56,264 bases of DNA, from contig CANHST010000001.1 of the NCBI GenBank assembly GCA_947463235.1, positions 1-56,264 of the forward strand, in the 5' to 3' direction. The translations under genes were made by a program, and so were the position numbers. The notes under the pieces were generated by a model. The model made no database searches, had not been told where the DNA came from, and was given only the letters and a program-made list of their open reading frames with translations. Numbering within the stretch: position 1 is the first letter of the stretch; the number at the start of each line of letters is the position of its first letter. Source of the DNA: Acidimicrobiaceae bacterium (lineage in GTDB: Bacteria; Actinomycetota; Acidimicrobiia; Acidimicrobiales; Ilumatobacteraceae). Positions 13,155 to 43,831 of the stretch are shown here, piece after piece.

Positions 13155-13172
13155 TTGTGAATCCCATCACAA
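13155..13172. promoter_or_regulatory. Rex-type operator candidate upstream of nuoA (11-subunit operon)
   Basis: TTGTGAATCCCATCACAA matches the Rex consensus TTGTGAA-N4-TTCACAA at 13 of 14 specified positions. It lies 22 nt upstream of the nuoA start, in the 48-nt gap after the preceding gene. Confidence 0.65.
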
Positions 13173-22245: not shown

Positions 22246-22357
22246 GGCGCGGCGCGGTGCTGGCGCGGCGAGGCGCTGGCGCGGCGCGGTGCTCGCGCGG
22301 CGCGGTGCTGGCGCGGCGAAGCGCTGGCGAGGCACTGGCGAGGCACGGCGAGGTGCT
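22246..22357. repeat. G-rich 16-nt tandem repeat (5 units) decaying into 10-11-nt units
   Basis: ggcgcggcgcggtgct-type units at 22246, 22262, 22278, 22294 and 22310. These are followed by ggcgaggcact, ggcgaggcac and ggcgaggtgct. The array lies between the right inverted repeat and the nuoN-2 stop. Confidence 0.85.
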
Positions 22358-22380: not shown

Positions 22381-23886
22381 TTAGGGGGCGAGGTTGATGA
22401 GCCAGCCGGGGAAGAACCCGACGAACAGCGTGAACGCCACCGAGAGGGTGATGGCCACCGTGAGGTACGCCGGCAAGCGCACTTCCTCGCGCTGGTCGTC
22501 GCCGGCTTCGGGCTCGGCGATCCACATTGAGATCATGATCCGCAGGTACAAGAACGCTGCGATCACTGCGGCCACCATCGCCACGACGGCGACGGAGTAG
22601 CTCTTGGCTTCCACAGCGGCACGGATGACGCCGAACTTGGCCACGAAACCGCTCGTAAGCGGAACACCCGCCTGCGCCAGCAGCAGGATGGTCATGCCGA
22701 AGGCCAGCATCGGCCGACTGCGGCCAAGGCCACGGAAGGCAGCCAGGTCGGTGGCGTTGTCGCCGGTACGGCTGACCGCAGTGACGATGCCGAAGGTACC
22801 CATCACGAGCACGGTGTAAATGAGCGTGTACAGCAACACCGACGAACGACCATCGTTGCTGGGGCCGCCGGCAGCGTGCGCCGCAGCCTCCACGCCCACG
22901 AGCATGAAACCGGCGTGGCTGATGCTGGAGAACGCCAACATGCGCTTCACGTTGGTCTGCACGACCGCCATGATCGAGCCGCCGAAGACGGTGAGGATGG
23001 CGAGCAGCCAGAGAACCGGACGGTAATCCCGGCTGAAGTTGGGCAGACCCTGCAGCAGCACTCGCAGCATCGCCGCGAACGCCGCGGCCTTCGCTGCCGA
23101 CGCCATGAACGCCGTCACCGGGGTGGGCGAACCTTCATACACGTCGGGAGTCCAGAAGTGGAACGGCACCGCCGCCACCTTGAACGCCAGACCCACCACG
23201 AGCAGGGCCACACCGGCCAAGAGGATCGCGTCGTCGCTGCCCTTCGTGGGCACAGTGGTGGCGAGTGCACGGAGCATCGCGTCGAAGTTCGTGCTGCCCG
23301 TACCGCCATAGATCAGGGCGATGCCGTAGAGGAAGATGGCCGATGAGAAGCCGCCGAGCACGAAGTACTTGAGGCCGGCTTCCTGGCTGCGCAGACGCTT
23401 GCGGTGGCTCGCAGCGAGCACATACAGCGTGATCGACAGGATCTCGAGACCGAGGAACAACACCACGAGATCGTTCGACGCCGCCATCACGATGCCGCCG
23501 ATGGCAGCCAGCATGAATAGGGCGTAGACCTCAGGACCTTCGAGGCCCTCGCGGCGCAGGTAGTCGTCGCTCAGCAGCGACGCCAGGAACACCGCGAGAC
23601 CGATGGTGAGCGTGACCCAGATGGTCATCTTGTCGAAGTGGACCGCGCCACCCACGAGGGTGGAAGGTCCGTCGACGTCGATGCGATGCCACAGCGGGAA
23701 GCACAGACCGATGGTGGCCAGCGCAACGACTGCGGAGAACGACGAATAGCAACGCTTCGGCCACTGCGGGGTGAGCGCAGCAACAACCAACAACACCATG
23801 GCACCGCCCAGCAGCACCAGCAGTGGGCTGAGGTCGAACCAGGCGATGCTGGGTCCTTTCAGCGTCTCGGCGGCGAGGACGCCCAT
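22381..23886 (-). CDS. nuoN: NADH-quinone oxidoreductase subunit N (14-subunit operon)
   Basis: 501-aa antiporter-like membrane protein with FHFWTPDVYEGSPTPVTAF. Last gene of the string. Confidence 0.93.
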   Translation of the reverse strand: MGVLAAETLKGPSIAWFDLSPLLVLLGGAMVLLVVAALTPQWPKRCYSSFSAVVALATIGLCFPLWHRIDVDGPSTLVGGAVHFDKMTIWVTLTIGLAVFLASLLSDDYLRREGLEGPEVYALFMLAAIGGIVMAASNDLVVLFLGLEILSITLYVLAASHRKRLRSQEAGLKYFVLGGFSSAIFLYGIALIYGGTGSTNFDAMLRALATTVPTKGSDDAILLAGVALLVVGLAFKVAAVPFHFWTPDVYEGSPTPVTAFMASAAKAAAFAAMLRVLLQGLPNFSRDYRPVLWLLAILTVFGGSIMAVVQTNVKRMLAFSSISHAGFMLVGVEAAAHAAGGPSNDGRSSVLLYTLIYTVLVMGTFGIVTAVSRTGDNATDLAAFRGLGRSRPMLAFGMTILLLAQAGVPLTSGFVAKFGVIRAAVEAKSYSVAVVAMVAAVIAAFLYLRIMISMWIAEPEAGDDQREEVRLPAYLTVAITLSVAFTLFVGFFPGWLINLAP

Positions 23887-25406
23887 CAGCCTTCTCCCTT
23901 TTCAACGACCGGCACCTGCCAGGACGAGTGCTGCGAGACGTGCTCGAGCAACTTGTCGACCGACGGCTCGATGCGATCGAGCATCGGCTTGGGGTACACA
24001 CCGGCGAACACGATGATGGCAATGAAGGGCAGCAGCAACATGCCCTCCTTCCAGCGGAGCTCCCGGAAGCTCTTGTTGTCGTCGTCGGGCTCGCCGTGGA
24101 AGACACGCTGATAGGCCCAGAGCAGATACAGCGCAGCGAGGATCACACCGACGGCCGCCACCACCACCCACCAGCGGGCGGTGGCGAAGGAACCGATCAG
24201 CACGAGGAACTCGCCGACGAAACCGTTCAGTCCGGGCACGCCGATGCTCGAGAGCATCACGATCATGAAGGCAGCAGCGAACACCGGCGCCACCTTCTGC
24301 AGGCCCTTGAGCTTGGCGATCTCACGAGTGTGACGCCGTTCGTAGATCATGCCCACGAGAAGGAACAACGCACCGGTGCTGATGCCGTGGTTGATGTTCT
24401 GCATCACGCCACCGGTGATGGCCTGCGACGTGAGAGCGAACGTGCCGAGCACGATGAATCCGAGGTGCGCCACCGAGGAGTACGCGACCAAACGCTTGAG
24501 GTCGGTCTGCATCGTTGCGGCGATGGCCCCCCAGAGGATGCCGATGGTGGCGAGCGTGAGGAACACCGGACGGGCCCACACTGCGGCCTCGGGAAACAGA
24601 TACACGCCGAAGCGGAGCAGACCGTAGGTGCCGAGCTTCAGCAGCACACCGGCGAGGATGACCGAGCCACCCGTGGGCGCCTGGGTATGCGCATCGGGCA
24701 ACCACGTGTGCAGCGGGAACAAGGGAACCTTCACGGCGAAGGCGATGGCGAAGGCAAAGAACAACCATCGGCCGGTGCCCGCAGCGAATGAACCATTCTC
24801 GGCAATCTTGATGAGGTCGAACGTGACCGCACCGTTGTCGGCCTTGGCGATGATGGCCGTCGCGATGATGCCGACGAGCATGAACGCCGAACCGACCATC
24901 GTGAAGAGGAAGAACTTGGTGGCCGCGTAGACCCGATCGTCGTAGCCCCAGCCCCCGATGAGGAAGTACATCGGCACGAGGACGATCTCGAAGAACACGA
25001 AGAACAGGAACAGGTCGAGACTGATGAAGCTGCCCATCACGCCCGCCTCGAGCAAGAGCATCCACGACAGGTAGCGCTTGTGATCGTGATGCGGGTCGAC
25101 GCCAGCGATGACCAATGGGAACAGGATGCCGGTGAGCACCACCAGGAAGATGGAGATGCCATCCACGCCGAGGTGCCACGAGATACCCCACTCCTTGATC
25201 CAGGAGTGCTGGCTGACGAACTGGAACCCACTGTCGGCCTTCTTGAAGGCGAACAACGTCCAGAGTGCCATGCCGCCGGTGAGCACGCTCGTGAGCAGCG
25301 CGACGACCTTCACCAGGTCGGGCTGTCGGTTGGAAATGAGCGCGACCACCAGCGAACCGATGGCCGGCACCAAGACCAGCAGCGTGAGAATGGGGAAGTC
25401 GATCAC
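23886..25406 (-). CDS. nuoM: NADH-quinone oxidoreductase subunit M
   Basis: 506 aa with LHTWLPDAHTQAPTGGSVILAG. 1-nt overlap with nuoN. Confidence 0.93.
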   Translation of the reverse strand: MIDFPILTLLVLVPAIGSLVVALISNRQPDLVKVVALLTSVLTGGMALWTLFAFKKADSGFQFVSQHSWIKEWGISWHLGVDGISIFLVVLTGILFPLVIAGVDPHHDHKRYLSWMLLLEAGVMGSFISLDLFLFFVFFEIVLVPMYFLIGGWGYDDRVYAATKFFLFTMVGSAFMLVGIIATAIIAKADNGAVTFDLIKIAENGSFAAGTGRWLFFAFAIAFAVKVPLFPLHTWLPDAHTQAPTGGSVILAGVLLKLGTYGLLRFGVYLFPEAAVWARPVFLTLATIGILWGAIAATMQTDLKRLVAYSSVAHLGFIVLGTFALTSQAITGGVMQNINHGISTGALFLLVGMIYERRHTREIAKLKGLQKVAPVFAAAFMIVMLSSIGVPGLNGFVGEFLVLIGSFATARWWVVVAAVGVILAALYLLWAYQRVFHGEPDDDNKSFRELRWKEGMLLLPFIAIIVFAGVYPKPMLDRIEPSVDKLLEHVSQHSSWQVPVVEKGEG

Positions 25407-27310
25407 AGGATTCCTCGCACGATGACGAACCAGGCGAGGAGGAGCACGACGCCCACCCCCACCGCTGCGGCGTAGTTACGCACGTTGCCGGTCTGCACTT
25501 TTCGGGCTTCGCCAGCCGTGCCCTGCACCAAGTGCGCCGTACCGTTCACTGCACCATCGATGATGTGCGAATCGGCCCAGGTGACGCCCTCGAAAGCCTT
25601 GCGGCCCGGGCCACCCATGAAGTTGCTGACCGCACGGTCGTAACCCCAGGCATCGGCGAGGATCTTGGGCTCCACCGGCTTGAGCTTCTTGAAGTAGTAC
25701 ACCGCAAACGCCACACCGATGCCGATGAGGCCCATCGCGATGGCCATCAACGCCAGCGGCAACTTGGCGGTGTCGGAGTGGTGCAGACCGACCACCGGCT
25801 CGAGCCATTGCGTCAGCTTCTCGGTGGACTCGCTGAACGGCAGGTTGATGAACCCGCCGGCGAACGACAGCACTGCGAGCACCACGAGCGGCAGCACCAT
25901 CATCCAGGGGCTTTCGTGGGGGTCATGGCCTTCGGCGTGAAGATCTCCGTGCGCACCGTGCTCTTCATGCGCGTCGTGCCAACGAGCCTCGCCGTAGAAC
26001 ACCATGATCACCTGGCGGGTCATGTAGAAGGCGGTGAGCAGCGCCGTGACGAGACCCACCACCCAGAGAATGGGGCTCTTGTCGTAGGCGGCCAACAGGA
26101 TGTCGTCCTTGCTCCAGAAACCCGAGAACGGCGGCACACCGGCGATGGCCAACCAGCCGACGATGAACGTGCCGAAGGTGAGCGGCATGAACTTGCGCAG
26201 CGCTCCCATGCGACGCATGTCTTGCTCGTGATGCATGCCGTGAATCACCGAGCCGCTGCCGAGGAACAGCAGTGCCTTGAAGAAGGCGTGGGTGACCATG
26301 TGGAAGATCGCTGCGGTATACGCACCGGACCCGACCGCGAGGAACATGAAGCCGAGCTGGCTGACCGTGGAGTACGCCAGCACCTTCTTGATGTCGTTCT
26401 GCGACACCGCCACCGTGGCGGCATAGAGCGCCGTGGCAGCACCGACGATCGCGATGATCGTGGGCGCATACGACGATGCCACGTTCAGCACCGGGCTGAT
26501 GCGGCACATCAGGTACACGCCGGCCGTCACCATGGTGGCTGCGTGGATGAGCGCCGACACCGGGGTGGGGCCTTCCATGGCGTCGGGCAACCAAAGGTAC
26601 AGCGGCAACTGCGCGCTCTTGCCGCATGCACCGACGAAGGCGAAGAGGGCGATGGCCGTGGCTGTGGTGGCCGACAGCGACCCCGCCGCCTCATTGATGT
26701 GCAGATAGTCGAGCGAACCCACGGCCCAGAAGGCGAAGAACATCGCCATCATGAATCCCCAGTCGCCAACTCGGTTGGTGACGAACGCCTTCTTGCCAGC
26801 GGTGGCAGCGCTGTCCTTCTCGTGCCAGAAGCTGATGAGGAAGTAGGAGCAGGTGCCCACGCCCTCCCAACCGAGGAACGTGACGAGCATGTTCGAGCCC
26901 AGCACGAGCATGAGCATGCTGAACGCGAACAGGTTCAGATAGAGGAAGAACTTGCTGAAGCGACTGTCGCCATGCATGTAGCCGACCGCATAGAGATGGA
27001 TCAGCGCACCGATACCTGTGACGAACAGGCACATGGTGATGCTGAGCGGATCGGCCAGGAATGCGAGGTCGATGTGCAGGCCACCGACGGCGACCCACGA
27101 GAACAGCGTGTGCACCTGTTCGGCACGGGCCTCGGGTGACAGCGACTGCAGGTCGAGGAACACGCCAACGCTGACCACAAAGGACAGCGCCACCATCGCA
27201 GCGGCGAAGTAGCCCGCCACAGGGTCGCCGAGCTTGCGCCCGAACAGCAGGATCACCAGGAACCCGAGCAACGGGAACGCGGGGATCAACCAGACGACGT
27301 CGAGCATCAC
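25403..27310 (-). CDS. nuoL: NADH-quinone oxidoreductase subunit L
   Basis: 635 aa with LYLWLPDAMEGPTPVSALIHAATMV and a HDPHESP motif before the C-terminal lateral-helix region. Confidence 0.93.
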   Translation of the reverse strand: MMLDVVWLIPAFPLLGFLVILLFGRKLGDPVAGYFAAAMVALSFVVSVGVFLDLQSLSPEARAEQVHTLFSWVAVGGLHIDLAFLADPLSITMCLFVTGIGALIHLYAVGYMHGDSRFSKFFLYLNLFAFSMLMLVLGSNMLVTFLGWEGVGTCSYFLISFWHEKDSAATAGKKAFVTNRVGDWGFMMAMFFAFWAVGSLDYLHINEAAGSLSATTATAIALFAFVGACGKSAQLPLYLWLPDAMEGPTPVSALIHAATMVTAGVYLMCRISPVLNVASSYAPTIIAIVGAATALYAATVAVSQNDIKKVLAYSTVSQLGFMFLAVGSGAYTAAIFHMVTHAFFKALLFLGSGSVIHGMHHEQDMRRMGALRKFMPLTFGTFIVGWLAIAGVPPFSGFWSKDDILLAAYDKSPILWVVGLVTALLTAFYMTRQVIMVFYGEARWHDAHEEHGAHGDLHAEGHDPHESPWMMVLPLVVLAVLSFAGGFINLPFSESTEKLTQWLEPVVGLHHSDTAKLPLALMAIAMGLIGIGVAFAVYYFKKLKPVEPKILADAWGYDRAVSNFMGGPGRKAFEGVTWADSHIIDGAVNGTAHLVQGTAGEARKVQTGNVRNYAAAVGVGVVLLLAWFVIVRGIL

Positions 27311-27311
27311 A

Positions 27312-27629
27312 TCAACCCTTCAACTCGGCGAGATCGTCGGTGGTGGCATTGGGGCGGCGGCGCAGGATGGCCACGATGATGCCGAGACCAACCACCACTT
27401 CGGCGGCTGCCACGACCATCACGAAGAACACGGTGGTCTGCCCACCGATGTCGCCCAGCTTCCGGGCCATGGCCACGAACGTGAGGTTCACGGCGTTGAG
27501 CATCAGCTCCACACACATGAACAGCACCAGCGGGTTGCGGCGCACCATCACGCCGACCATGCCGATGGAGAACAGCGCCGCAGCGAGAATGAGGTACCAC
27601 GTCGTGGTGGGATGGAGGGAAGCGATCAT
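27312..27629 (-). CDS. nuoK: NADH-quinone oxidoreductase subunit K
   Basis: 105 aa with three TM helices and [11 protein letters not shown]. Confidence 0.92.
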
Positions 27630-28192
27630 CAGGATTCACTCCCCTGCAACTCACCCTTGCGCGGCTTGCGCGCCAGCATCACGGTGCCGACCACGGCGAT
27701 CACCAGCAGCACCGACGTGAGTTCGAACGCCAACACGTGCGAGCTGAACAGATCGCGAGCGAGCGCCTTGATGTTGCCGTCGTGCAGTTGGCCACCACCG
27801 GGTGCCGCAACCTCGAGGCCCGTGCCGGCAACTGCGGTGCGGGCGTCGCGCGACACCACCACCGCAGCCACCACCAAACCGAACACGCCGACACCCACTG
27901 CAGCAGCGATGGGTCGCTGCACCTTGAACGGCTCGAGGCGCAGGTTCTCGGCGCGATCAACGCCGAGCAGCATGATGACGAACAGGAAGAGCACCACGAT
28001 CGCGCCGGCGTAGACGATCACCTGCACGGCCGCCAAGAAGTTCGCCTGCTGCGCCACGAACAGCACGGCCACACCGAACAGGGTGAGGATGAGGCTGAGT
28101 GCTGCATGCACCGGGTGCTTGCTGACGATCACACCGATGGCACCACCGAGCACCATGGCCGCCGCCACGACGAAGACGAAGAGCTCCATCAT
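27629..28192 (-). CDS. nuoJ: NADH-quinone oxidoreductase subunit J
   Basis: 187 aa with [20 protein letters not shown] and [19 protein letters not shown]. Confidence 0.92.
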
Positions 28193-28881
28193 CGTGTCAC
28201 CGACTTCACGGTCTTCTCCACCTTGTCGGCCTTCGGGGTGTCGGCTTCGGTCTGCGTTGCCTCGGCGGCGCGCACGCCGTAGCCGAGTTCGCTACTCCAA
28301 CCAACTGCGCCAACGAAGTCGGCGTCGCCAGCCGCAGCGGTGGCCCGCATCCAGCCGCTGGTGAACACGTCTTCGCCTTCGCGCCAGTCTTCCCACGGTA
28401 GTTGCTTGGGCTTGCCGTCGTCGCCGACGAGCAGTTCGGCCTTGCTGTACACAGCGTCGCGTCGGTTGGTGAAACTGAACTCGAAGAGCTTGCTCTCGGT
28501 GATGGCTTCGGTGGGGCAGGCCTCCACGCAGAGGTCGCAGTGGATGCAGCGCAAGTAGTTGATCTCGTAGACGAAACCGAAGCGCTCGCCGGGCGAGGTG
28601 GGTTCCTGCGGGTCGTTGTCGGCGCCGCGCACATAGATGCACTTGGCAGGGCACACACCGGCGCAGAGCTCACAACCGATGCACTTCTCCATGCCGTCCT
28701 CGTAGCGGTTGAGGACGTGACGGCCGTGCATCCGTTCGGGCTTGGCGATCTTCTCGTCGCGCCCTTCGGTCTTCTTGCCCTTCTTGGCAACGCGTCCGCC
28801 GCTGTACGGCGTGGTGACACGTTCGCCACCGAAGATGCGGTGCTGCTTCAGCGTGACGAGGAATCCGTCGAGGTATCCCAT
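28189..28881 (-). CDS. nuoI: NADH-quinone oxidoreductase subunit I (2x[4Fe-4S]; extended termini)
   Basis: 230 aa with [12 protein letters not shown] and [12 protein letters not shown]. Carries a Lys-rich N-terminal insert and a C-terminal tail of about 50 aa. Confidence 0.92.
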
Positions 28882-30098
28882 CAGAACATCGCCCCCTCTC
28901 GGTCGCGGTTACGGGCACTCACCTTGGTGGCATACGACAGCAGCCAGGCTGCAGCGCCCAACACCACCAGGCAGATGACACCGACGAGTGCTCGGTTCCA
29001 GTTGTTGTCCTGCCCGACGCGGAACGCAGCCAGCAGCATGAACCAACCCAGCGCGAGCGGGATCATCAGCTTCCAGCCGAGGTTCATGAGTTGGTCGTAG
29101 CGCAGACGAGGCAGCGTGGCACGGAACCACACGTACATGTACAGGAAGACGAGCACCTTCAGCAGGAAGAGCACGGTGCCGGCAAACGGCCCAAGGAATC
29201 CAAGCGTGATGTTGACGCCGCTGAATCGAATGGGCTGCGGCCCACCGAAGAACAACGTCACGATGACGCCGCTCATGGTGATCGTGTTCATGAACTCGGC
29301 GAGATAGAAGAGCGCGAATCGGATGCTGGAGTACTCGGTGTTGAAGCCACCCACCAGTTCCTGCTCGGCCTCGACCAGGTCGAACGGCGGTCGGTTCAGT
29401 TCGGCAGTAGCGGCGATGAGGAAGATCACGAACGGCACCACACCGGTGGCCACCACGTGCCAGCGGCTGAGGCTGCTCTGAGCGACCACGATGCCGTTGG
29501 TGCTCAGCGTGCCTGCCACCAAGATCACCGTGGCCAGAGCGAGACCGAGCGCTGCTTCGTAGCTGACCATCTGCGCCGATGCTCGGACCGAACCCAGCAG
29601 CGGGTACTTCGAACCCGAACTCCAGCCGGCGAGCATGATGCCGTAGATGGCGATGCTGCTCAGCGCCAGCAGCAACAGGACACCGATCGGAGGATCGGCC
29701 AACTGCAACTTCGTGGCATGACCCAGGATCATCACCGTGCCGTCCTTGCCATTGCTGAAGTCGCCACCCAACGGGATGACGCTCCAGACCAGGAAGGCCG
29801 GCACGAAGGCCAGATACGGGGCAAGGATGAACACGAACCGGTCGCTGCGATCCGGGATGAGGTCTTCCTTGAAGAACAGCTTGATGCCGTCGGCCAGCGT
29901 CTGCAGCAAACCCTTCGGCCCGGCCTTATCGGGGCCGATGCGGTTCTGCATGTAGGAGATGACCTTGCGTTCGAACCACACCATGAGCATGGTGCCCACG
30001 AGGCCGACGACGAAGACCACGAGCACCTTGATGATGACGATCAGGAACTCCGTGCTCCAGAGCTTGATGTGATCGAGGAGTTGGTCGAGCGCGAGCAT
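28881..30098 (-). CDS. nuoH: NADH-quinone oxidoreductase subunit H
   Basis: 405 aa with [27 protein letters not shown]. Confidence 0.93.
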
Positions 30099-33890: not shown

Positions 33891-34495
33891 TGGGCTGCCT
33901 CCGGCATCCAGGCAGGAACCACCGGGGCATCGGGCGACGCCACACCGGCGGCCTTGTCGGCGGGAATCTGCTGACGCACTCGGGCCAACGTGCCGTGCGC
34001 AGGGATCTCTCCGTCGAGGCGGCCGGCACGCAGGTCGTCGATCAACTCGTCGAAGTTCGCCGTGGTCATGCGATGGCAGTGGCGATAGTTCACCTGCATG
34101 TTGGGCGCCTCGGTACACGCTGCCTGACACTCGGCGTGTTCCAGCGTGAACATGCCATCGGAGGTGGTGCCGCCAGCCTTCACACCGAGCGTCTGCTCGG
34201 CATGGTGCATCAGTTCATCGGCACCGAGCAACTGGCAACTCATGGTTCCGCAGATGTTGACGAGGTACTTGCCCACCGGGGCCATCTTGAACATCTCGTA
34301 GAACGTGCACGTGCCCAGCACCTCGGCCGAGGTGGCGCCCACGAGTTCGGCGATATGCGCGATGGCATCGTCGGTGATGTAACCGTTCTGCTGCTGCGAC
34401 AGGTGCAGCAACGGAATGGTGGCCGAGCGAGCCCTCGGATAGCGACCGATGATCTCCTTCGCCACGAGAACGTTGGCTTCGTTCAACCGACTCAT
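33887..34495 (-). CDS. nuoE: NADH-quinone oxidoreductase subunit E (2Fe-2S)
   Basis: Start at ATG 34493-34495, an ATGA overlap with the nuoD stop. Cysteines of the thioredoxin-like 2Fe-2S fold are present (CGTMSCQ .. CQAACTEAP). Confidence 0.9.
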   Translation of the reverse strand: MSRLNEANVLVAKEIIGRYPRARSATIPLLHLSQQQNGYITDDAIAHIAELVGATSAEVLGTCTFYEMFKMAPVGKYLVNICGTMSCQLLGADELMHHAEQTLGVKAGGTTSDGMFTLEHAECQAACTEAPNMQVNYRHCHRMTTANFDELIDDLRAGRLDGEIPAHGTLARVRQQIPADKAAGVASPDAPVVPAWMPEAAQ

Positions 34496-35826
34496 CGGTC
34501 TACCTCTCCCAGGACGGGGTCGACCGATGAGATGACGGCCACGGCATCGGCCACGAGACCGCCGCGCATCATGTGCGGCAGACACTGGATGTTCACGAAC
34601 GATGGGGCCCGCACATGCATGCGGTACGGCGTGGAGGAACCGTCGCTGGCGATGTAGCAGCCGATCTCGCCTCGCGGACTTTCGATGGCCACGTACACCT
34701 CACCCTCGGGCACCTTGAAGCCCTCGGTGAAGATCTTGAAGTGGTGGATGAGCGCTTCCATGCTCTCATCGATGCGCGCACGCGGCGGCGGCGTGACCTT
34801 CTTGTTCTGGATGCGGAAGTCGCCCGAGGGCATCCGATCCAGAATCTGATGCACGATGCGGATGCTCTCGCGGATCTCGTTGAGGCGGATGGCGTAGCGG
34901 TCGAAGGCGTCGCCGTAACTGCCCACCACGACGTCGAACTCCACCTCCGGATAGCGAAGGTACGGCATGTCGCGGCGGAGATCCCACGGCACGCCGGTGC
35001 TGCGCAGGATGGGGCCGGTGGCACCAAGCGCCGTGGCTTCCTGCGCCGTGATCACACCCACACCCTGCAGACGGTCGCGCCAGATCGGCTGACCGGTCAT
35101 GAGGATGTCGTACTCCTCCAGGCGCGGGGGAATCATGTCGAGCAGGTGCAGCACGTCGTCGCGCCAGCCATCGGGCAGGTCGGCAGCCACACCGCCAGGA
35201 CGGATGAAGTTGTGGTTCATCCGCAGGCCCGTGACCTTCTGGAAGAAACGCAACACTTCCTCGCGCTCGCGCCAGCCATAGATCATCATGCTGACGGCGC
35301 CGATGTCCATGCCGTTCGTGGCAAGGAAGAGCAGGTGGCTGCTCATTCGGTTCAGTTCACTGAGCAGCATGCGCATCCAGACGGCGCGCTCGGGAATGTC
35401 GTTCTCGATGCCGAGCAACTGCTCCACCGCAAGGCTGAACACGAGTTCGTTGTTCAGCGGGCTGAGGTAGTCCATGCGGGTGACGTTCGTGCCGCCCTGC
35501 ATGTAGGTGAGTTGCTCACCGGTCTTTTCCATGCCGGTGTGCAGGTATCCGATGATGGGCTTGCAGCGCAGCACGGTCTCGCCCTGGAGCTCCAGCATCA
35601 GTCGGAGCACGCCATGGGTGCTCGGGTGCTGAGGACCCATGTTGATGATCATCGTCTGATCCTCGGAAGGATCGACGGGCAGATCGCCGAGCTTGGCGGC
35701 TTCCGCCTCGCTCATTCGCAGCACGGCGCCGACCTCGCGCAGCAGTTCGCGGGCGGTGATTTCGCTACGCGGCTTCAACCCCTGTGCGGGCTCGTTGCCG
35801 CCGCGGATGACGTCGACGATGCTCAT
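34492..35826 (-). CDS. nuoD: NADH-quinone oxidoreductase subunit D
   Basis: Start at ATG 35824-35826, an ATGA overlap with the nuoC stop. Motifs NMGPQHPSTHGVLRLML and LHTGMEK; C-terminal VISSVDPVLGEVDR. Confidence 0.92.
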   Translation of the reverse strand: MSIVDVIRGGNEPAQGLKPRSEITARELLREVGAVLRMSEAEAAKLGDLPVDPSEDQTMIINMGPQHPSTHGVLRLMLELQGETVLRCKPIIGYLHTGMEKTGEQLTYMQGGTNVTRMDYLSPLNNELVFSLAVEQLLGIENDIPERAVWMRMLLSELNRMSSHLLFLATNGMDIGAVSMMIYGWREREEVLRFFQKVTGLRMNHNFIRPGGVAADLPDGWRDDVLHLLDMIPPRLEEYDILMTGQPIWRDRLQGVGVITAQEATALGATGPILRSTGVPWDLRRDMPYLRYPEVEFDVVVGSYGDAFDRYAIRLNEIRESIRIVHQILDRMPSGDFRIQNKKVTPPPRARIDESMEALIHHFKIFTEGFKVPEGEVYVAIESPRGEIGCYIASDGSSTPYRMHVRAPSFVNIQCLPHMMRGGLVADAVAVISSVDPVLGEVDR

Positions 35827-36350
35827 GACGAGGCTCGCTTCGAGAAGTCGGCGGTGAACTGCACCGGGATACGGCTGGGATCGTCGTCCTTGCGCAGCGG
35901 GTGGCCTTCCCAATCCTCGGGCATGAGGATGCGCGTGAGGTCGGGGTGGTTGGTGAACGCGATACCGAACATGTCGAACACCTCGCGCTCCATCGCCTCG
36001 GCTCCGGGGTACAGGTCGAAGGCGCTGGCGATGCTGGCATCGGACTCCGGCACCTGCACCCGCAGACGGATGCGTTCGCGGCGCTCGATGCTGAGCAGGT
36101 TCACGACCACTTCGAACCGCTCGGCAGCGATGCCCTCAGGAAGAGCGCGACCCATGTGCAGCAGGTAGTCCACTGCGGTGAGGTCGGCGCACATGGTGAA
36201 GGTTTCGTCGAGCAAGGTGCGCAGCAACGCGATGTAGCCATCGCGCGTGGGGTGCAGCACTCGCTGGCCGCGACTGTCGCTCAGCGGCACGCCGTAGAGC
36301 ACCGTCGGCTCGGGCGCGAAGTTGGACTCGGGGGTGGTGGCCTCACTCAT
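35823..36350 (-). CDS. nuoC: NADH-quinone oxidoreductase subunit C
   Basis: 175 aa with [36 protein letters not shown]. Confidence 0.9.
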   Translation of the reverse strand: MSEATTPESNFAPEPTVLYGVPLSDSRGQRVLHPTRDGYIALLRTLLDETFTMCADLTAVDYLLHMGRALPEGIAAERFEVVVNLLSIERRERIRLRVQVPESDASIASAFDLYPGAEAMEREVFDMFGIAFTNHPDLTRILMPEDWEGHPLRKDDDPSRIPVQFTADFSKRASS

Positions 36351-36353
36351 GAG

Positions 36354-36992
36354 TTACCGGGTTCCCAGAATGACGGGCACCGGGTTGTCGCCAGCAGCGA
36401 TCTCGGTGACGTGCACGTTGGCGCCGGCACCGGTCTCCTGCCGACGACGCAGCAACTGGCCGTCCTCGATCAGTTGGTGCAGCGTCTCGATGGCGTGGAT
36501 GAGGGTCTCCGGAGTGGGAGGGCAGCCAGGGGCATACACATCGACCGGCACCACTTGGTCCACGCCCTGCACGATGGCGTAGTTGTTGAACATGCCGCCA
36601 CTGCTGGCACACACACCCATGCTGATGACCCACTTGGGTTCCATCATCTGGTCGTACACCTGGCGCAGCACCGGGGCCATCTTCTGGCTCACACGGCCGG
36701 CCACGATCATGATGTCGGCCTGTCGCGGCGAGGCGCGGAAGACCTCCATGCCGAAGCGACTGAGGTCGTAATGAGCTGCGCCCGTGGCCATCATCTCGAT
36801 TGCACAGCAGGCGAGACCGAACGATGCAGGCCAGGAACTGCGGCTGCGAGCCCAGTTCACCAGATCCTCGAGCTTGGCGGTGATGGCGTTGTGCTCGATG
36901 CCACCCATACCGTCGTCGAGAATGCCCTGCACGAAACTTCTGCCGGTGGCCGGCGTTGCGTCGACCGTTGCGTCGTGGTTCATCGCGCTCAC
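36354..36992 (-). CDS. nuoB: NADH-quinone oxidoreductase subunit B
   Basis: 212 aa with [18 protein letters not shown] and APGCPPTPE. Confidence 0.92.
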
Positions 36993-37450
36993 GCTGCGTT
37001 CTCCTGTGGGCGACCTTCGAGGCCGACGCGGCGGATGGTGCTACTGGACGTGCGCTCCGGTGAGAGGGCGGTATCGAGACGCCGTTGCACGTTCACCGGA
37101 CCCCACTCCAGCGCACCCCGTGCCACCACGTACACGAAGGCAGCGAAGAACACCACGCTGAATGCGACCATCTCCCACAGCGCATACGAGCCGAGGAATG
37201 CCCGGTCGACGGCGAAGGGGTAGATGAAGATGATTTCGATGTCGAACATGATGAAGAGCATGGCGACGACATAGAAGGTGACCGGGAAACGTTCCGGTGG
37301 CTCGCGGCTCGGCACGATGCCGCACTCGTACGGCGCCGACTTGGCAGCCGACGGACGACGCGGCGCGAGAAGGCGCGATGCACCGAAGCTCAAGGCTCCG
37401 AACAGCGTCGCCAGTACGAGGAGTGCGATGACCGGCAGGTACTGGCCCAT
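36989..37450 (-). CDS. nuoA: NADH-quinone oxidoreductase subunit A (with about 35-aa C-terminal extension)
   Basis: 153 aa with YECGIVP and FDIEIIF motifs. The start lies 3 nt after the stop of the preceding membrane-protein gene. Confidence 0.9.
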
Positions 37451-37453
37451 GAA

Positions 37454-38272
37454 TCAGACCTTCTGTGGTAGTGCCTTGGCGTCCAGGTTGGCGCGGACGT
37501 AGCGGTCGCGTCGGTGGAGCAGCCAGCACAGGATGAGGAAGATGATGAGCGACGAGATGCAGATGATGGCCGCAGGCTTACGCTTCGAGCCGAGGTCGCG
37601 GATCATGTACACGTAGTCGTGCGAGCGCGTCGTGTCGATCACCGGACGGGCCGGTGCGCGACCCGGTTCGGTGCGCTGTGGCACCAACGGCGCAGTCTCC
37701 ACGAGCGCATAGTGCGGATCGTGGAAGAACGCCAAGAAGTCGATGCGATCGTCCCAGAACGTGGGGTGGCGCTCGCCGCCCTTGTCGAACACGTTGACTA
37801 CGGTGAACTCGCCAGCCGCAAGTGCGCCGGATTCCTCGAGGAACACGGTGCCAGCCGAACCAGCCTGCTGGAACGACGGCAACGCCGGATCGAGCTTGAT
37901 CCACCCATCGGTGATCAGTTGCTGGCTGACGGCAGCAGCGTCGGCGGGAGCATCGCCGGTGGGCGTGAACGGCACCTGAATGACACCGACTTCATGCAAC
38001 AGCGCGCTATCACGGATCACCGTTTCGCCTGCGACGGCCTTCCAGGAGGAATCCGGGCCGAGGAGGCCCTTGCCGTACGACCACCAGATGGCACCCATGA
38101 GGAACATCCAGCCGGCCAACCCGGCAAACGCCACGAGGAAGCCGAGGCGGGCACCCATGTTGGTACCGAGGATCAGATAGATGCTGCCGCAGAGCACCGC
38201 CACCGAGATGATGACGATGAGGGTGCCGCGAAGCTCCCATTCCCAGTTCACAGCCAGAAGAGCACTCATCAC
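37454..38272 (-). CDS. uncharacterised membrane protein (2 N-terminal TM, about 170-aa extracytoplasmic domain, 1 C-terminal TM)
   Basis: 272 aa. ATGA overlap with the dihaem cytochrome c stop, and its own stop lies 3 nt before the nuoA start. Hydrophobic segments: LIVIISVAVLCGSIYLILG, LGFLVAFAGLAGWMFLMGAIWW, AAIICISSLIIFLILCWLL. I recognise no family. Confidence 0.7.
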   Translation of the reverse strand: MMSALLAVNWEWELRGTLIVIISVAVLCGSIYLILGTNMGARLGFLVAFAGLAGWMFLMGAIWWSYGKGLLGPDSSWKAVAGETVIRDSALLHEVGVIQVPFTPTGDAPADAAAVSQQLITDGWIKLDPALPSFQQAGSAGTVFLEESGALAAGEFTVVNVFDKGGERHPTFWDDRIDFLAFFHDPHYALVETAPLVPQRTEPGRAPARPVIDTTRSHDYVYMIRDLGSKRKPAAIICISSLIIFLILCWLLHRRDRYVRANLDAKALPQKV

Positions 38273-39351
38273 AGACCTCGCACGTATTCGACGACAGCCT
38301 TGATCTGCTCATCGGTGAGCAGGTGGCCGAAACCAGGCATACGACCAGAGCCCTGGCTCTGCATGCCGTACTTCTTACCGTTCGAGGAACCCGCCTTGAT
38401 GAAGCTGATCATGTCGGACTCGTTCGGGAAGTGGGTGTTCGTGGCTCCGCCGGTGAGGTTCCAGCCGAAGGCACCCTGGCCGGTCGCCACGGGATCGCCG
38501 TAGCTCCAGCCCTGCGTGTGGCAGCGGGCGCAGCTGTAGGCGCCGCTGTTGAGGTCGAGGTTGAAGAGCGCCTCGCCTTCGCTGGCATCCGGGTTCGCCT
38601 TCAGATAATTGTCGACGGCCTTCTGGATCTCGTCCTTGGTGGGCTGCGGCAGCGTGCCGCCGTCGCACACCGAGGGGTCGGCGGTATCGGAGAACGGCAG
38701 CGCCGAAGGGTTCACGCAGCTGTCGGGCTCGATCTGAATGGTCTCCAGGTACACCAGCAACGTCTCGATGTTCTGTTCGGTCATCGGGCCACCACCGGGG
38801 GCACCCCACGCCGACATCGGCGAGAAGGGACGGCCATAGTTCAGGATGAACCGCACCTCCTCCTTGCTGTAGCGGTAGAAAACCGTGTTGAGTGCGGGTG
38901 CGTACCAGCTGACGGCGCGAACCTCGCCGGTCTTCGGGTCGGTAACGGCATACGGCGCTTGCCCACCGGTGCCCTTCAGACCGCCGTGGCAACCGGCGCA
39001 GTTGAAGCCACCGTTGGCCGTGGTCTGGAACAGTTCCTCGCCCCAGCCCACGAACTCCTCGTGCTTCCGGTCGACGGCGCCGGCCTGACGGCCAGGCTCG
39101 AGAATCCAGTAGACGGGAAGGCCGATCACCATCGTGGCGAGCAGCAGCACACCGAACAGCTGGAAGCGCTCGAGTCGCGAACCTTCCATCTGTTCGTCGT
39201 CGTAGTACTGCTTCCGGTTCGGCGCCATCTCGATTTCGGAACCGAGTTCCTTGCGAGCCGACGAGTTGTTCAGGAAGTAGTAGGTGATCCAGCCGAGAAG
39301 GATGACCGTGAAGATCACCCAAGCAACAGCAGTGGTGTTGAGTGCAACCAT
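38269..39351 (-). CDS. membrane-anchored dihaem cytochrome c (QcrC-like role)
   Basis: 360 aa with two N-terminal TM helices, two CxxCH motifs (CAGCH, CARCH) and candidate Met ligands (PMSAWG, GRMPGFG). Confidence 0.88.
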   Translation of the reverse strand: MVALNTTAVAWVIFTVILLGWITYYFLNNSSARKELGSEIEMAPNRKQYYDDEQMEGSRLERFQLFGVLLLATMVIGLPVYWILEPGRQAGAVDRKHEEFVGWGEELFQTTANGGFNCAGCHGGLKGTGGQAPYAVTDPKTGEVRAVSWYAPALNTVFYRYSKEEVRFILNYGRPFSPMSAWGAPGGGPMTEQNIETLLVYLETIQIEPDSCVNPSALPFSDTADPSVCDGGTLPQPTKDEIQKAVDNYLKANPDASEGEALFNLDLNSGAYSCARCHTQGWSYGDPVATGQGAFGWNLTGGATNTHFPNESDMISFIKAGSSNGKKYGMQSQGSGRMPGFGHLLTDEQIKAVVEYVRGL

Positions 39352-40211
39352 CAGTGCGAGCCTCCGCCGCCGGTGATGCAGTGCGGACCCTCGGCCTCTT
39401 GGCCGGTGGTGTTGATGCCGATCGGGGCACCGGTGATCACGGTCGACGTGTCGATGACGACGTCGCCCGATGCGCTGACGGTGACCGCGAAGTGATCCAT
39501 GCCACGCGGGGCGGGACCGGCCTTCTTCTCACCGACGCGGTTGTACTGCGAACCGTGGCACGGGCACTCGAACCACTGGCTGCTGGCGCACTGCGGCACA
39601 CGGCAGCCGAGGTGCGGGCACTTCTGGTACATCGCCACAACGCCTTCGGAGAGACCGCCGAGCAGCGATTGGTACTCGGCAATGCCCTTGGCCTTCGGCA
39701 GTGCCTCGGGCGGATACTGCGTGATGTACGAACGCGCACTCGACGAGTAGAAGAAGCCGGCGTTGCTCCGGATGCTGGCAATGACGTCGTCGAGCTTGCC
39801 GACGCTCACCTTGCCGCCGAACACGGGCGCAGCAGTGGGCCACAGGAATGCCACGAAGGCACCGGCGGCGAACGTACCGAGGCCGGCGCTCATGAGCGTG
39901 ACGGTGGCGCGGTTGAGGAACTGGCGACGGTTCACACCGATCTGTTCCGCATCGGGAGCAACCCAGGTGACCGGGGCGGTGGACTCGGGCTTGACGAGGC
40001 TGGCCTCGCGAGCTTCGGTGGCGGCGCGCTCGACCTGGCGGCCCGTGGGTGCGGGCCCGTCGATCTCGGCGTCCTTGTCGCGACGACGCGTCTCGCGGCT
40101 GAGCGCACCGGCTCCGCGCACGTCGCTCTTTCGAGCGGCAGTGAGCAGGGCCACGGCGAACAGCGCGACGAGCACGACGGCGGCGATGGCGATGATGGCG
40201 GCAGGACTCAT
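39351..40211 (-). CDS. Rieske 2Fe-2S subunit of cytochrome bc/b6c complex
   Basis: Start trimmed to ATG 40209-40211. Has a twin-arginine-like NRRQFLNRA, and Rieske boxes CPHLGCRV and CPCHGSQY. Confidence 0.9.
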
Positions 40212-40224
40212 GACAGCAGGTGCC

Positions 40225-40995
40225 TCACAGTTCGAAGAAGATGCCGTCACGCCACGGGAGCGTGAAGTTGAAGCCGGGGCCACGGAAGAACGAACCGATG
40301 ATGACGAGCACGGCCCAGAACATGAGGTGCACGGTCATCAACGAGGTCGCGAACTTGCGATCTTCGGGCTTATTGGATGGGTTCTTGTCGATGAAGGGCG
40401 CAAGGATCAGCACGATCATGCCCACACCGGGGATGGTCACACCGGCGACCATCGGGTGGAACATGGTGAGCAGTTCCTGCAGACCGAGGAAGTACCACGG
40501 TGCCTTCGACGGGTTCGGCGTCTTGTTGATGTTCGCCTGCTGCAGCAGCGGGGCGTTCACGAAGATGCTGAAGAAGAAGGTGAACGACAGGCACGCCAGG
40601 GCGGCAACGAACTCACCGGCGAGTAGGTGCGGCCACGTGTGCACCTTGTCGACCGGCGAGGCCTTCACGTCCTGAATGGAGCCGCTCTTCACCACGGTGA
40701 GCAGACGCTGCGTGTGGCCACCGGGGCCAGCGCCCATCGGCACGCCACCACCGGCAGGAGCTGCGGCCACCACGCTGGCGACCTTCTCCTGCACGGCCAC
40801 GCCACCACCAGCGCCGTCAGCCTGCGCCTTGCGGGCCTTGCTGCGCTCGAGGAGATGGGCCGGGATACGCGGATCCGCGGCGGGTTCGCTGCTCGCCGCA
40901 GCGCCGGCGGCATCGGCCGCGGCACCGCTTTCGGCGGCAGCCTTGTCGCGAGCAGCTTGTGCTCGCTTGAGGAGGTGTTCGGGGATTTCGGTCAT
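40225..40995 (-). CDS. cytochrome b6f subunit-IV-like protein (C-terminal half of cytochrome b) with about 115-aa Ala/Lys-rich N-terminal extension
   Basis: 256 aa. The C-terminal 140 aa align by eye with PetD/subunit IV: three TM helices and the Qo-motif region [13 protein letters not shown]. The N-terminus carries two copies of an IPxHLLxRS..A.KA motif. Confidence 0.85.
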
Positions 40996-41012
40996 CGATC
41001 GTCTCCGTCAGC

Positions 41013-41798
41013 TCACAGGGGGCCCGAGATGCCGCCGTCTTTGCGGACTCGCCAGAAGTGGATAGCCATGAAGATGACGATCACGAAGGGCAGCATGAGT
41101 ACGTGCAGCACGTACCAACGCAGCAGCGTGTCGCCACCGATTTCCTTGCCACCGAGCAGCACGAACCGAACCTGGGTACCGATGACCGGCGAGTAGCCCA
41201 TCATGTTGGTACCCACGGTCACTGCCCAGAGCGCCAGCTGGTCCCACGGCAACAGATAGCCGGTGAACGACAGCAGCAGGGTGAGCATCAGCAGCACCAC
41301 GCCGATGACCCAGTTGAACTCACGCGGCGGCTTGTAGGCGCCGTGGTAGAAGACGCGGGCCATGTGCAGGAACACACTGAGCACCATGAGGTGCGCACCC
41401 CATCGGTGCATGTTGCGCACAAGTAAGCCGAACGTCACCGAGGTCTGCAGGTTCGAGATGTCGTTCCAGGCCTGCACGTCGGTGGGGCGGTAGAAGAACA
41501 TCAAGAAGATGCCGGTGACCGTCAGCAGGATGAAGAGGAAGAAGCTCAAGCCACCGAGGCAGAGCGTGTAGCTCACCTTCACGGCATGTCGCTTCACCTT
41601 CACCGGGTGCAGGTGGTACAGCACCGAGTTCATGATGACGTAGCTGCGGTTACGCGGGCTGTCGGTGTAGCCCTTGCGGAAGATGGAACCGGGCCGGAAG
41701 ATGGAACTCCAGGCCTGGCTGCCCTGCACGGAATCGACCGTCTTGTTCAGACGGTCTTTCACTGTGGGCTTGGGAGTGTCGTCGAGGATCTTTGCCAT
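41013..41798 (-). CDS. cytochrome b6-type subunit (N-terminal half of cytochrome b), haem-ci cysteine conserved
   Basis: 261 aa. By-eye alignment with plastid cytochrome b6 gives YTLCLGG (Cys80 matching b6 Cys35). The His pairs are spaced 14 (MHRW..FLHMA) and 15 (VLHVL..AIHFW). The C-terminal end RKDGGISGPL is b6-like. Confidence 0.9.
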   Translation of the reverse strand: MAKILDDTPKPTVKDRLNKTVDSVQGSQAWSSIFRPGSIFRKGYTDSPRNRSYVIMNSVLYHLHPVKVKRHAVKVSYTLCLGGLSFFLFILLTVTGIFLMFFYRPTDVQAWNDISNLQTSVTFGLLVRNMHRWGAHLMVLSVFLHMARVFYHGAYKPPREFNWVIGVVLLMLTLLLSFTGYLLPWDQLALWAVTVGTNMMGYSPVIGTQVRFVLLGGKEIGGDTLLRWYVLHVLMLPFVIVIFMAIHFWRVRKDGGISGPL

Positions 41799-41807
41799 TT
41801 CTCTTCC

Positions 41808-42221
41808 TCAGAGCCGCATGCCGTAGGCGTAGCCGTGGTTGTTGGTACGAGTGTGTGAATCGCCGGTCGTGCCCGGAGCGCCCACCTTGCCGAGGATGAT
41901 GACCCCGGTCGGGCAGCGGTCCACGCAGAGCTGGCACCGTGTGCAGATGTCGTCGTCGATGATGAACACGACGTTGTCGCTGGGGTCGAGCCCCGGCTTC
42001 TCCGTGCCGTTGGATTCCGAGATGGCGTCGGGTGACACCATGTGGATGCACTTCCACGGACAGATGTCGACGCAACCCTCGCACATGATGCACTCGGTCT
42101 GGTCGATGTGGATGAACTGCTTCGGCTTGACGGCCTTCGACAGGTAGTCGGCGTCGACCTCCACCAGGAGGTAGTCGTCGGTGTACGGCATCATCGCCGG
42201 ATTGGCGTCGGTCTTCGCCAT
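41808..42221 (-). CDS. 2x[4Fe-4S] dicluster ferredoxin-like protein encoded inside the bc operon
   Basis: 137 aa with CIMCEGCVDICP and CTRCQLCVDRCP and no TM segment. Its stop lies 9 nt before the cytochrome b6 start, and its start lies 3 nt after the stop of the upstream gene. Confidence 0.85.
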   Translation of the reverse strand: MAKTDANPAMMPYTDDYLLVEVDADYLSKAVKPKQFIHIDQTECIMCEGCVDICPWKCIHMVSPDAISESNGTEKPGLDPSDNVVFIIDDDICTRCQLCVDRCPTGVIILGKVGAPGTTGDSHTRTNNHGYAYGMRL

Positions 42222-42224
42222 GCG

Positions 42225-42713
42225 TCAGCCCTTCTTCACCAGCGGGCGACCGAAGCTGCTAGTGGCGATCTCGGTGCCGGCGACCACGTCGCCGCGCTTT
42301 TGCCACTTGCTCCAGAGGTAGATGAGCAGACCGAAGAACCACAGGTGGATGACGACCACCACGATGTCGCGAATGGCTTCGTACGACATGGTGATGGGCC
42401 AGCTGCCACCGAGCGCCTGCGGCTTGAAGATGTCGCCGGGGCCGTAGATGATGTTGTTCTTCGACCAGCCCAGTTCCTTGTCGGCATGGTCGATGAACTG
42501 GTGGGGGCACACGCCGAAGGCGATGAACATCACGCCGAAGGCGTACACCGACGCCAGCATGGCCTCACCCCAACTGGTGGGAGTGCCCTTGGGCCGGCGC
42601 TTGGAGTAGGGGATCACGATGAGCGCGCCGAAGGTGGCCAGGAAGAACGAAAACAGGAACGCCACGTTCATGCCGGGCCAATGCAATGGGTTCGTTTCGA
42701 ATGCGATCAGCAC
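42225..42713 (-). CDS. small uncharacterised membrane protein, first gene of the bc-nuo gene string
   Basis: GTG at 42711-42713 is preceded by GGAGAGGG at 7 nt; an alternative ATG lies at 42671. Three hydrophobic helices: FLFSFFLATFGALIVI, ASVYAFGVMFIAFGV, IVVVVIHLWFFGLLIYLW. The rest of track ORF 42225..43700 is antisense to a real cytochrome c gene. Confidence 0.65.
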   Translation of the reverse strand: MLIAFETNPLHWPGMNVAFLFSFFLATFGALIVIPYSKRRPKGTPTSWGEAMLASVYAFGVMFIAFGVCPHQFIDHADKELGWSKNNIIYGPGDIFKPQALGGSWPITMSYEAIRDIVVVVIHLWFFGLLIYLWSKWQKRGDVVAGTEIATSSFGRPLVKKG

Positions 42714-42728
42714 TTCGCTGCCCTCTCC

Positions 42729-42747
42729 ATGTGAACTGCTGCACGAA
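42729..42747. promoter_or_regulatory. weak Rex-like box in 5' region of the bc-nuo string
   Basis: aTGTGAActgcTGCACGAa compared with TTGTGAA-N4-TTCACAA matches 6/7 in the first half and 5/7 in the second. It lies immediately upstream of the RBS at 42721-42728. Confidence 0.3.
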
Positions 42748-42866
42748 CTGTAGCCACGCAACCCGGGGTCAGTACCAGTTCGTCCACGAGAACGCACCGT
42801 GACGTACCCCCGGACAGGTGTCACAAGCGACAGGTTTACCACGCGGACACCCCGACCGCCGTGCCG

Positions 42867-42884
42867 TTGTGAACTCGTGCACGC
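42867..42884. promoter_or_regulatory. weak Rex-like box upstream of the divergent cytochrome c gene
   Basis: TTGTGAActcgTGCACGC has a perfect first half-site (7/7) and a 4/7 second half. It lies 70 nt upstream of the GTG at 42954 and shares the core GTGAACTnnTGCACG with the box at 42729. Confidence 0.3.
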
Positions 42885-42953
42885 CGCCGGGTCGAGCGAC
42901 ATCGCGACCGAGGATTTCCCCCACGCGACCCTTCTCCGTCTATCGTTCACCCC

Positions 42954-43769: not shown

Positions 43770-43803
43770 GCCTCGGTTCCAACAACCGATTCGTCCTTCA
43801 GAT

Positions 43804-43831
43804 GTGGCCGCTTCCCTCGGGAAGCGGCCAC
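43804..43831 (+). terminator. perfect 12-bp stem-loop after the cytochrome c gene
   Basis: gtggccgcttcc-ctcg-ggaagcggccac lies 35 nt after the stop at 43769. It has no U-tract, which is usual at this GC content. Confidence 0.6.

Follow-up and report, generated by a model that had tools for sequence, protein, structure and literature searches.

A 21-gene string encoding complexes III and I

The window analysed here, which is the whole 56,264-nucleotide stretch at positions 1 to 56,264 of contig CANHST010000001.1 (assembly GCA_947463235.1) from an Acidimicrobiaceae bacterium of the family Ilumatobacteraceae, contains an uninterrupted string of 21 genes in which a seven-gene module for a b6c-type complex III runs directly into the 14 nuo genes of complex I. 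In bacteria, the genes for these two complexes normally reside in separate operons. We propose that the string is probably a single operon, translationally coupled and controlled by the redox-sensing repressor Rex, from which both complexes would be expressed together. The proposal of co-transcription draws on synteny and on the geometry of the gene junctions.

All 21 genes lie consecutively on the minus strand, from 42713 down to 22381. The sequence-only reading of the window had described such a string, and the map of open reading frames (ORFs) together with Pfam scans confirmed that it is real. Pfam assigned families to 19 of the 21 genes, the exceptions being the first and the seventh (g1 and g7). 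The string opens with g1 (42225..42713), the first cistron, which encodes a 162-residue membrane protein. Compared with the GTG at 42713, previously taken as the beginning of the string, the ATG at 42671 is the likelier start codon, as the alignments of relatives begin only at about residue 15–17; the protein would then have 148 residues. It is followed by g2 (41808..42221), a 137-residue ferredoxin with two [4Fe-4S] clusters (Pfam Fer4 families); g3 (41013..41798), cytochrome b6 (PF00033, 2.2e-46), which makes up the N-terminal half of cytochrome b, here split over two genes; g4 (40225..40995), a subunit IV/PetD-like protein corresponding to the C-terminal half (PF00032); g5 (39351..40211), a Rieske 2Fe-2S protein (PF00355); g6 (38269..39351), a membrane-anchored dihaem cytochrome c (PF13442 and PF00034, in two stretches); and g7 (37454..38272), a 272-residue membrane protein that has no Pfam or NCBIfam family.

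The complex I genes continue from there on the same strand: nuoA (36989..37450, PF00507), nuoB (36354..36992, PF01058), nuoC (35823..36350, PF00329), nuoD (34492..35826, PF00346), nuoE (33887..34495, PF01257), nuoF (32484..33890, PF01512 and PF10589), nuoG (30098..32497, PF13510, PF10588, PF22117 and PF00384), nuoH (28881..30098, PF00146), nuoI (28189..28881, Fer4 families), nuoJ (27629..28192, PF00499), nuoK (27312..27629, PF00420), nuoL (25403..27310, PF00361 and PF00662), nuoM (23886..25406, PF00361) and nuoN, the final gene of the string (22381..23886, PF00361). By Pfam assignment the set from A to N is complete, in canonical order and on a single strand, and it includes the NADH-oxidising N-module (NuoE, NuoF and NuoG). 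Taken by itself, this part of the string is a conventional 14-subunit complex I operon of the type that Rex regulates in actinobacteria.

Neighbouring genes throughout the string overlap or are separated by no more than 17 nt, as the sequence-only reading had stated. With overlaps given as negative values, the junctions of the b6c module measure +3 (g1/g2), +9 (g2/g3), +17 (g3/g4), +13 (g4/g5), −1 (g5/g6) and −4 nt (g6/g7). The nuo junctions measure −4 (A/B), +3 (B/C), −4 (C/D), −4 (D/E), −4 (E/F), −14 (F/G), −1 (G/H), −1 (H/I), −4 (I/J), −1 (J/K), +1 (K/L), −4 (L/M) and −1 nt (M/N). Two start codons are ambiguous, that of the Rieske gene (ATG 40211 versus GTG 40250 or 40283) and that of nuoB (GTG 36992 versus ATG 36983), and none of the choices opens a gap. 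The joint between the module and complex I, g7/nuoA, is +3 nt: the g7 stop codon TGA (37456-37454) is followed by TTC and then by the nuoA ATG at 37450, and the nuoA Shine-Dalgarno sequence AGAAGG sits within the final g7 codons. The joint therefore offers no intergenic room for a promoter, and the ORF map shows 42714..42953 to be the sole sizeable non-coding stretch upstream, both in keeping with the sequence-only reading. A scan of 24000-43500 found sigma-70-like and terminator-like sites inside the string at chance level only, an uninformative result in an actinobacterial window with a G+C content of 65%, as actinobacterial promoters are too weakly defined for such a scan.

The joint is conserved throughout Acidimicrobiales

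Loss of the junction in relatives had been named beforehand as an outcome that would refute the sequence-only reading. It did not occur, and the joint is kept order-wide. The g7 protein was found in 56 of 61 relatives. Same-strand adjacency of g7 and nuoA was seen at all 30 same-genus loci. It was likewise seen wherever the sequence extended far enough, both in other families of the order (19 of 19 loci; this sample comprised 20 families, of which L052, on a 3.9-kb contig, was left out) and among named public loci (63 of 63). The remaining 17 named loci consist of 16 whose contigs end before nuoA and one (L088) that represents an orphan second copy of b6.

This orphan copy (L088:10001-10786) is 88% identical and resides on a 583-kb contig of an Ilumatobacteraceae metagenome-assembled genome (MAG), where no other module gene and no nuo gene was found within 10 kb on either side of it. 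Two b6 matches were also seen in several further genomes.

Across 75 Acidimicrobiales loci, the median gap between g7 and nuoA is 3 nt, and 93% of the gaps are no longer than 30 nt. The corresponding medians within the two complexes, at loci L034-L133, are 12 nt for g2 to g3, 28 nt for g3 to g4, 18 nt for g4 to g5 and −1 nt for nuoA to nuoB. The boundary between complex III and complex I is as tight as, or tighter than, the boundaries within either complex, and this tight, fused pattern is far beyond chance. When the sequences upstream of nuoA were aligned, a recurrent geometry emerged, ...GAAGGnCTGAnnnATG or TGATG, in which the stop codon is followed after 0–10 nt by ATG, and a GAAGG-type site in the final g7 codons recurs across the relatives. 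By eye, the alignment of the last 90 nt of g7 contained no conserved promoter-like block beyond the coding constraint. An assembly artefact can be ruled out, as the same joint is present in a closed 5.26-Mb chromosome (L057) and in megabase contigs (L036 and L048).

Four families of the order with small genomes (f21, f27, f31 and f36; for example, genomes G056 and G106) gave only a distant cytochrome b match, with E values of 1e-25 to 1e-29. G056, their sole member in the g7 search, is without g7. In these families, the b6c module appears to have been replaced or lost.

A divergent control region with Rex-like boxes

The 240-nt region 42714..42953 separates g1 on the minus strand from a divergent monohaem cytochrome c gene on the plus strand. 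We searched the whole window for Rex-operator-like boxes with the consensus TTGTGAANNNNTTCACAA, allowing at most three mismatches. Three boxes were found where 0.63 were expected, and all three head nuo-containing strings. Two of them are in the control region: box 1 at 42729..42746 (minus strand TCGTGCAGCAGTTCACAT, three mismatches) and box 2 at 42867..42884 (minus strand GCGTGCACGAGTTCACAA, three mismatches, with a perfect right half-site). The third and best one, TTGTGAATCCCATCACAA at 13155..13172, has a single mismatch and is located directly upstream of the nuoA gene of a second nuo cluster. The control-region boxes resemble the Rex operator (ROP) sites that were DNase-footprinted in Streptomyces avermitilis, namely TTGTGCACGCGTTCACAA of the rex promoter and the nuoA1 site TTGTGACCTGCTTCACAT (PMC5355995).

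Within 400 nt upstream of g1, a Rex-like box is present at 11 of the 14 other-family loci of Acidimicrobiales and at 29 of 74 Ilumatobacteraceae-type loci, against a background of 0.017 per 400 nt. The 12 other-order loci, the majority of them without a tight fusion, had none upstream of g1. The box is associated with the fused state. We also considered that it might have been inherited from an ancestral nuoA promoter; this is unsupported, as none was found upstream of nuoA at seven other-order loci.

The genome itself contains a canonical rex gene, a 241-residue ORF that matches PF06971 at 72.9 bits and carries a GAGNLG motif. Hence, both sequence features of an actinobacterial Rex regulon are present: the genome has rex, and an operator-like palindrome occurs in the promoter region. 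From these we infer that Rex would bind the control region and repress the string, whose Rex control we regard as putative.

The seven-gene b6c-type module

The cytochrome b of the module is split in the b6 manner, into a b6 protein with four haem-ligand histidines and a separately encoded subunit IV. A motif check places the ligands of g3 at His131/145 and His232/247, which is b6-type spacing with 14 residues between the helix-D histidines. The single cysteine of g3, Cys80 in YTLCLGG, occupies the place expected for haem ci by motif resemblance only. Subunit IV (g4) has an N-terminal extension of about 100 residues, and its Qo motif is APWY, at residue 165, instead of the canonical PEWY or PDWY. 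The Rieske protein g5 (PF00355) carries both boxes, CPHLGC and CPCH, the dihaem cytochrome g6 has the haem-binding motifs CAGCH and CARCH, and the ferredoxin g2 has two CxxCxxCxxxC motifs. This ferredoxin is 61–75% identical across the order and accompanies b6 phylum-wide. Ilumatobacteraceae/Acidimicrobiales MAGs contain cytochrome b6 loci that are nearly identical to this one. That the complex acts as a quinol:cytochrome c oxidoreductase is supported only indirectly: the genome assembly has no cytochrome b other than g3, and haem-copper oxidase genes are found elsewhere in the genome.

Neither g1 nor g7 has a sequence relative in Pfam, NCBIfam or the PDB. Throughout Acidimicrobiia, g1 is retained at its position upstream of the ferredoxin gene. 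In g7, an alpha/beta outer domain is preceded by two N-terminal helices and followed by a single C-terminal one; the AlphaFold model of g7, which is confident (pLDDT 84), found no fold match in the PDB with Foldseek (best E 0.12, TM at most 0.2). There are 1997 homologues of g7, and among the 120 listed all bear the name 'hypothetical protein' at their source. Neither these sequence searches nor, for g7, the fold search could link g1 or g7 to supercomplex subunits that are already known. The idea that g7 is a bridge specific to the fusion was ruled out, because it also accompanies unfused b6c modules. The two proteins are to be counted with the b6c complex or module and not with the fusion, since g7, and often g1, also occur where the module is unfused.

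Extent beyond Acidimicrobiales and origin of the fusion

The cytochrome b6 of the module is found, at 70–90% identity, throughout the class and in other classes of Actinomycetota. Outside the order, we sampled 20 families of other Acidimicrobiia orders and 20 loci from other Actinomycetota classes, and the full set of ferredoxin, b6, subunit IV, Rieske protein and dihaem cytochrome c (with or without g7) was confirmed in the sampled loci. Among the 20 loci from other Acidimicrobiia orders, nuo follows in tandem in three, at a distance of about 1.3 kb (L143), 292 nt (L146) or 356 nt (L151), lies 7–12 kb downstream in another three (L134, L136 and L145) and is divergent in one (L152). No nuo was found within about 12 kb in 12 of them, and the contig of L137 is too short to tell. 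In the other classes, nuo was found downstream of the module at none of the 20 loci. The earlier suggestion that the arrangement is unusual was borne out, the module being without nuo downstream in most of the loci sampled outside the order.

In most Acidimicrobiia orders, the b6c module has a divergently oriented geranylgeranyl-reductase-like gene next to it, and in L134, L136 and L152 this gene is located directly upstream of nuoA. In L152, the b6c module is divergent from the reductase-like gene, which itself runs into nuoA, and in L134 and L136 the reductase gene and nuoA are placed 7–12 kb downstream of the module. L136 is also the only other-order locus with a haem-copper oxidase gene between the b6c module and nuoA. 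The varied layouts that the module, the reductase gene and nuo adopt in other orders indicate that the three are old neighbours. On the distribution seen in these loci, the head-to-tail fusion appears to be derived within Acidimicrobiia and lineage-specific to Acidimicrobiales. One rearrangement of these long-adjacent elements may have produced it and left nuo dependent on the promoter upstream.

Interpretation of the fused arrangement

The most probable explanation, which we favour with reasonable though not full confidence, is that the string constitutes one Rex-controlled, translationally coupled operon of 21 genes that co-expresses complexes III and I. The main promoter would be located in the divergent region 42714-42953 and would be controlled by Rex, which senses the NADH/NAD+ ratio. 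Transcription would proceed through the seven b6c-type genes and into nuoA-N without an intergenic break. Translation of nuoA would be coupled to the termination of g7, because the stop and start codons are only 3 nt apart and the ribosome-binding site is inside g7. The outcome would be co-regulated synthesis of the sole Rieske/cytochrome b complex of the cell and of the NADH-oxidising 14-subunit complex I, so that the co-expressed unit would correspond to the NADH-to-cytochrome c segment of the respiratory chain. Joint expression of this segment would presumably be of physiological benefit.

Several points weigh against a single Rex-controlled operon. Both control-region boxes carry three mismatches, and only about 40% of the Ilumatobacteraceae-type loci pass the threshold of at most three. 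Most other lineages have a working b6c module with no nuo behind it, and the linkage is therefore not mechanistically required. A promoter may also lie hidden inside a coding region, that of g7 or another one within the 20 kb. In its full form, the latter objection turns the string into a co-directional cluster, in which one or more internal promoters, for instance in the 3' part of g7, drive nuoA-N and the tightness of the junctions is a matter of compaction. The string spans 20.3 kb, and long operons often have internal promoters. Furthermore, the gap between g7 and nuoA is promoter-sized, 68–154 nt, in L042, L053, L070, L109 and L116, and about 300–350 nt in the two other-order loci L146 and L151. 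We nevertheless consider this explanation rather unlikely. The great majority of the Acidimicrobiales joints (93%) measure 30 nt or less and are often TGATG overlaps, no conserved block beyond the coding constraint is visible at the end of g7, the scan gave no promoter-like signal above chance, and no Rex-like box is present upstream of nuoA where a gap exists. Internal promoters that merely supplement the upstream one are, in any case, compatible with the single-operon reading.

A somewhat better, but still unlikely, alternative is that the fusion is a frozen accident: one ancestral rearrangement in Acidimicrobiales would have been kept since nuo had lost its own promoter, and co-expression would bring no selective benefit. 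The neighbours do occur in varied layouts outside the order, being divergent in L152, having the reductase gene run into nuoA in L134 and L136 and forming a loose tandem in L143, L146 and L151, so that one inversion or deletion could create the fusion. However, the joint is held at 0–10 nt with a ribosome-binding site in nearly all lineages, and the Rex-like box is associated with the fused state. This alternative also concerns the origin of the arrangement and not its mechanism, and it is compatible with the single-operon explanation.

The gene order could reflect a physical complex I-III2 supercomplex, in effect a hard-wired NADH:cytochrome c oxidoreductase, with g1 and/or g7 as bridging or assembly subunits and with co-translation from one mRNA aiding co-assembly. 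The idea rests on analogy with obligate III-IV supercomplexes that are linked at the operon level, such as those encoded by actinobacterial qcrCAB next to cta, Sulfolobus SoxM and ACIII-caa3. Preservation of the fusion across at least 20 families and the presence of two conserved membrane proteins that belong to no recognised family would fit it. On the other hand, g1 and g7 accompany the module in other orders and classes where nuo is not adjacent and are not specific to the fusion, the complex IV genes are on another contig, and gene order alone does not demonstrate protein contact. We therefore regard such a supercomplex as improbable. A more elaborate version, to which we would assign a slightly smaller chance still, is that Acidimicrobiales build an obligate I-b6c (I-III2) assembly from one mRNA, with g1, g7 and possibly the ferredoxin, at the cytoplasmic face near haem ci, as supernumerary subunits that would dock or wire the two enzymes. 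If true, this would be, to our knowledge, the first prokaryotic I-III supercomplex hard-coded in gene order.

Comparison with known systems

The closest counterpart of the complex I half is the Rex-repressed nuoA1-N1 operon of Streptomyces avermitilis (PMC5355995), where 14 nuo genes in canonical order likewise form one unit; its promoter region has a palindromic TTGTGAA-N4-TTCACAA-type operator, and the genome carries rex. The difference is that, in the locus described here, seven complex III genes lie between the Rex-box region and nuoA, giving a 21-gene unit, and that its Rex control is putative.

The module shares with the cyanobacterial and plastid b6f complexes and with the Firmicute b6c complexes (Bacillus QcrABC and heliobacterial PetCBDX) a split cytochrome b, the 14-residue spacing of the helix-D histidines, and a Rieske protein with a c-type cytochrome partner; by motif resemblance, Cys80 may correspond to their cysteine at the haem-ci position. 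It differs from them in having APWY in place of PEWY or PDWY as its Qo motif, in encoding the dihaem cytochrome c by a gene of its own and in its fusion to nuo. Two family-less membrane proteins and a dicluster ferredoxin are obligatory partners of the module at gene level, and small Pet subunits were not identified. By the motif of g4, the module is assigned to the 'APWY clade' of uncharacterised Rieske/cytochrome b complexes described by Kao & Hunte 2014 (PMC4122944). That paper reports a split cytochrome b for actinobacteria that include Ilumatobacter coccineum, with sequences that belong to either the PEWY-cyt c or the APWY clade, and makes no mention of nuo linkage or of a ferredoxin partner.

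The Geobacter proteins ExtP and ExtQ (NCBIfam NF040969 and NF040970) also group with the APWY clade. The g3 protein scores 309.7 against the cut-off of 290 of NF040969 ('selenite/tellurite reduction operon b-type cytochrome ExtP'), and automatic annotation may thus give it a misleading, Geobacter-derived name. The context of the ext genes, extracellular electron transfer and selenite/tellurite reduction, is unrelated to the present locus.

Within the same phylum, the bcc-aa3 (III2-IV2) loci of Mycobacterium and Corynebacterium, with qcrCAB next to cta, also link two complexes and encode a dihaem cytochrome c. There, however, complex III is linked with complex IV, cytochrome b is unsplit and the supercomplex has been shown experimentally, whereas here complex III is linked with complex I, the two are not known to associate physically and the oxidase is encoded on another contig. 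In Kuenenia, an anammox bacterium, the b6-like core of a Rieske/cytochrome b complex is encoded with extra Fe-S/NAD(P) oxidoreductase subunits; in contrast to the locus described here, the partners are a flavoprotein and multihaem cytochromes, nuo is not fused to them and the phylum is another one.

No description of a b6c–nuo fusion was found in the full-text literature searched, a coverage that most subscription journals fall outside. The fusion is real, conserved and apparently undescribed, and it is an organisational variant of known systems.

Flanking genes and genome context

The divergent gene that shares the control region with g1 (42954..43769, plus strand) encodes a membrane-anchored monohaem cytochrome c with the motif CSGCH. 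It was found between the geranylgeranyl-reductase-like gene and g1 in every locus of the Acidimicrobiales families that reaches there, and was detected in none of the other-order loci. The first 11 residues of this cytochrome (42954-43769) and of g4 (40225-40995) are identical. The adjoining flank, 43450-46114, contains the gene for the geranylgeranyl-reductase-like FAD protein (plus strand) and a polyprenyl synthetase gene (minus strand), which suggests that genes for the quinone side chain are clustered with the quinone-using complexes. At the opposite end, a C-rich run of tandem units of about 16 nt (cgccgcgccagcaccg-like) starts directly after the nuoN stop codon (22246-22357, in the minus-strand reading), and the inverted repeats of an adjoining nuclease cassette come after this run.

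The assembly to which the window belongs comprises 3.1 Mb in 317 contigs and is about 95% complete. The genome has one cytochrome b gene and two nuoA genes. The second nuo cluster (2556-13133, minus strand) consists of 11 genes, nuoABCDHIJKLMN, without nuoE, nuoF and nuoG, and its proteins are 30–45% identical to those of the first. The COX1 (haem-copper oxidase) genes are on another contig, C44, which rules out for this genome a linkage to complex IV of the kind found in other actinobacteria.

Significance

An order-wide, translationally coupled fusion behind one putative redox-sensing site would be a natural instance in which the NADH-to-cytochrome c segment of respiration is expressed as one unit. 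It offers a testable handle on how the levels of respiratory complexes are balanced, on whether bacterial I-III supercomplexes can be genetically hard-wired, and on the role of the ferredoxin-associated APWY-type b6c complex, which is widespread in deep-branching Actinomycetota and includes two family-less subunits. Freshwater, marine, soil and activated-sludge communities all harbour abundant Acidimicrobiales, so that the respiratory chain in question is an ecologically important one. Demonstration of a hard-wired I-III assembly, or of a new role for the ferredoxin-bearing b6c complex, would make the arrangement highly significant.

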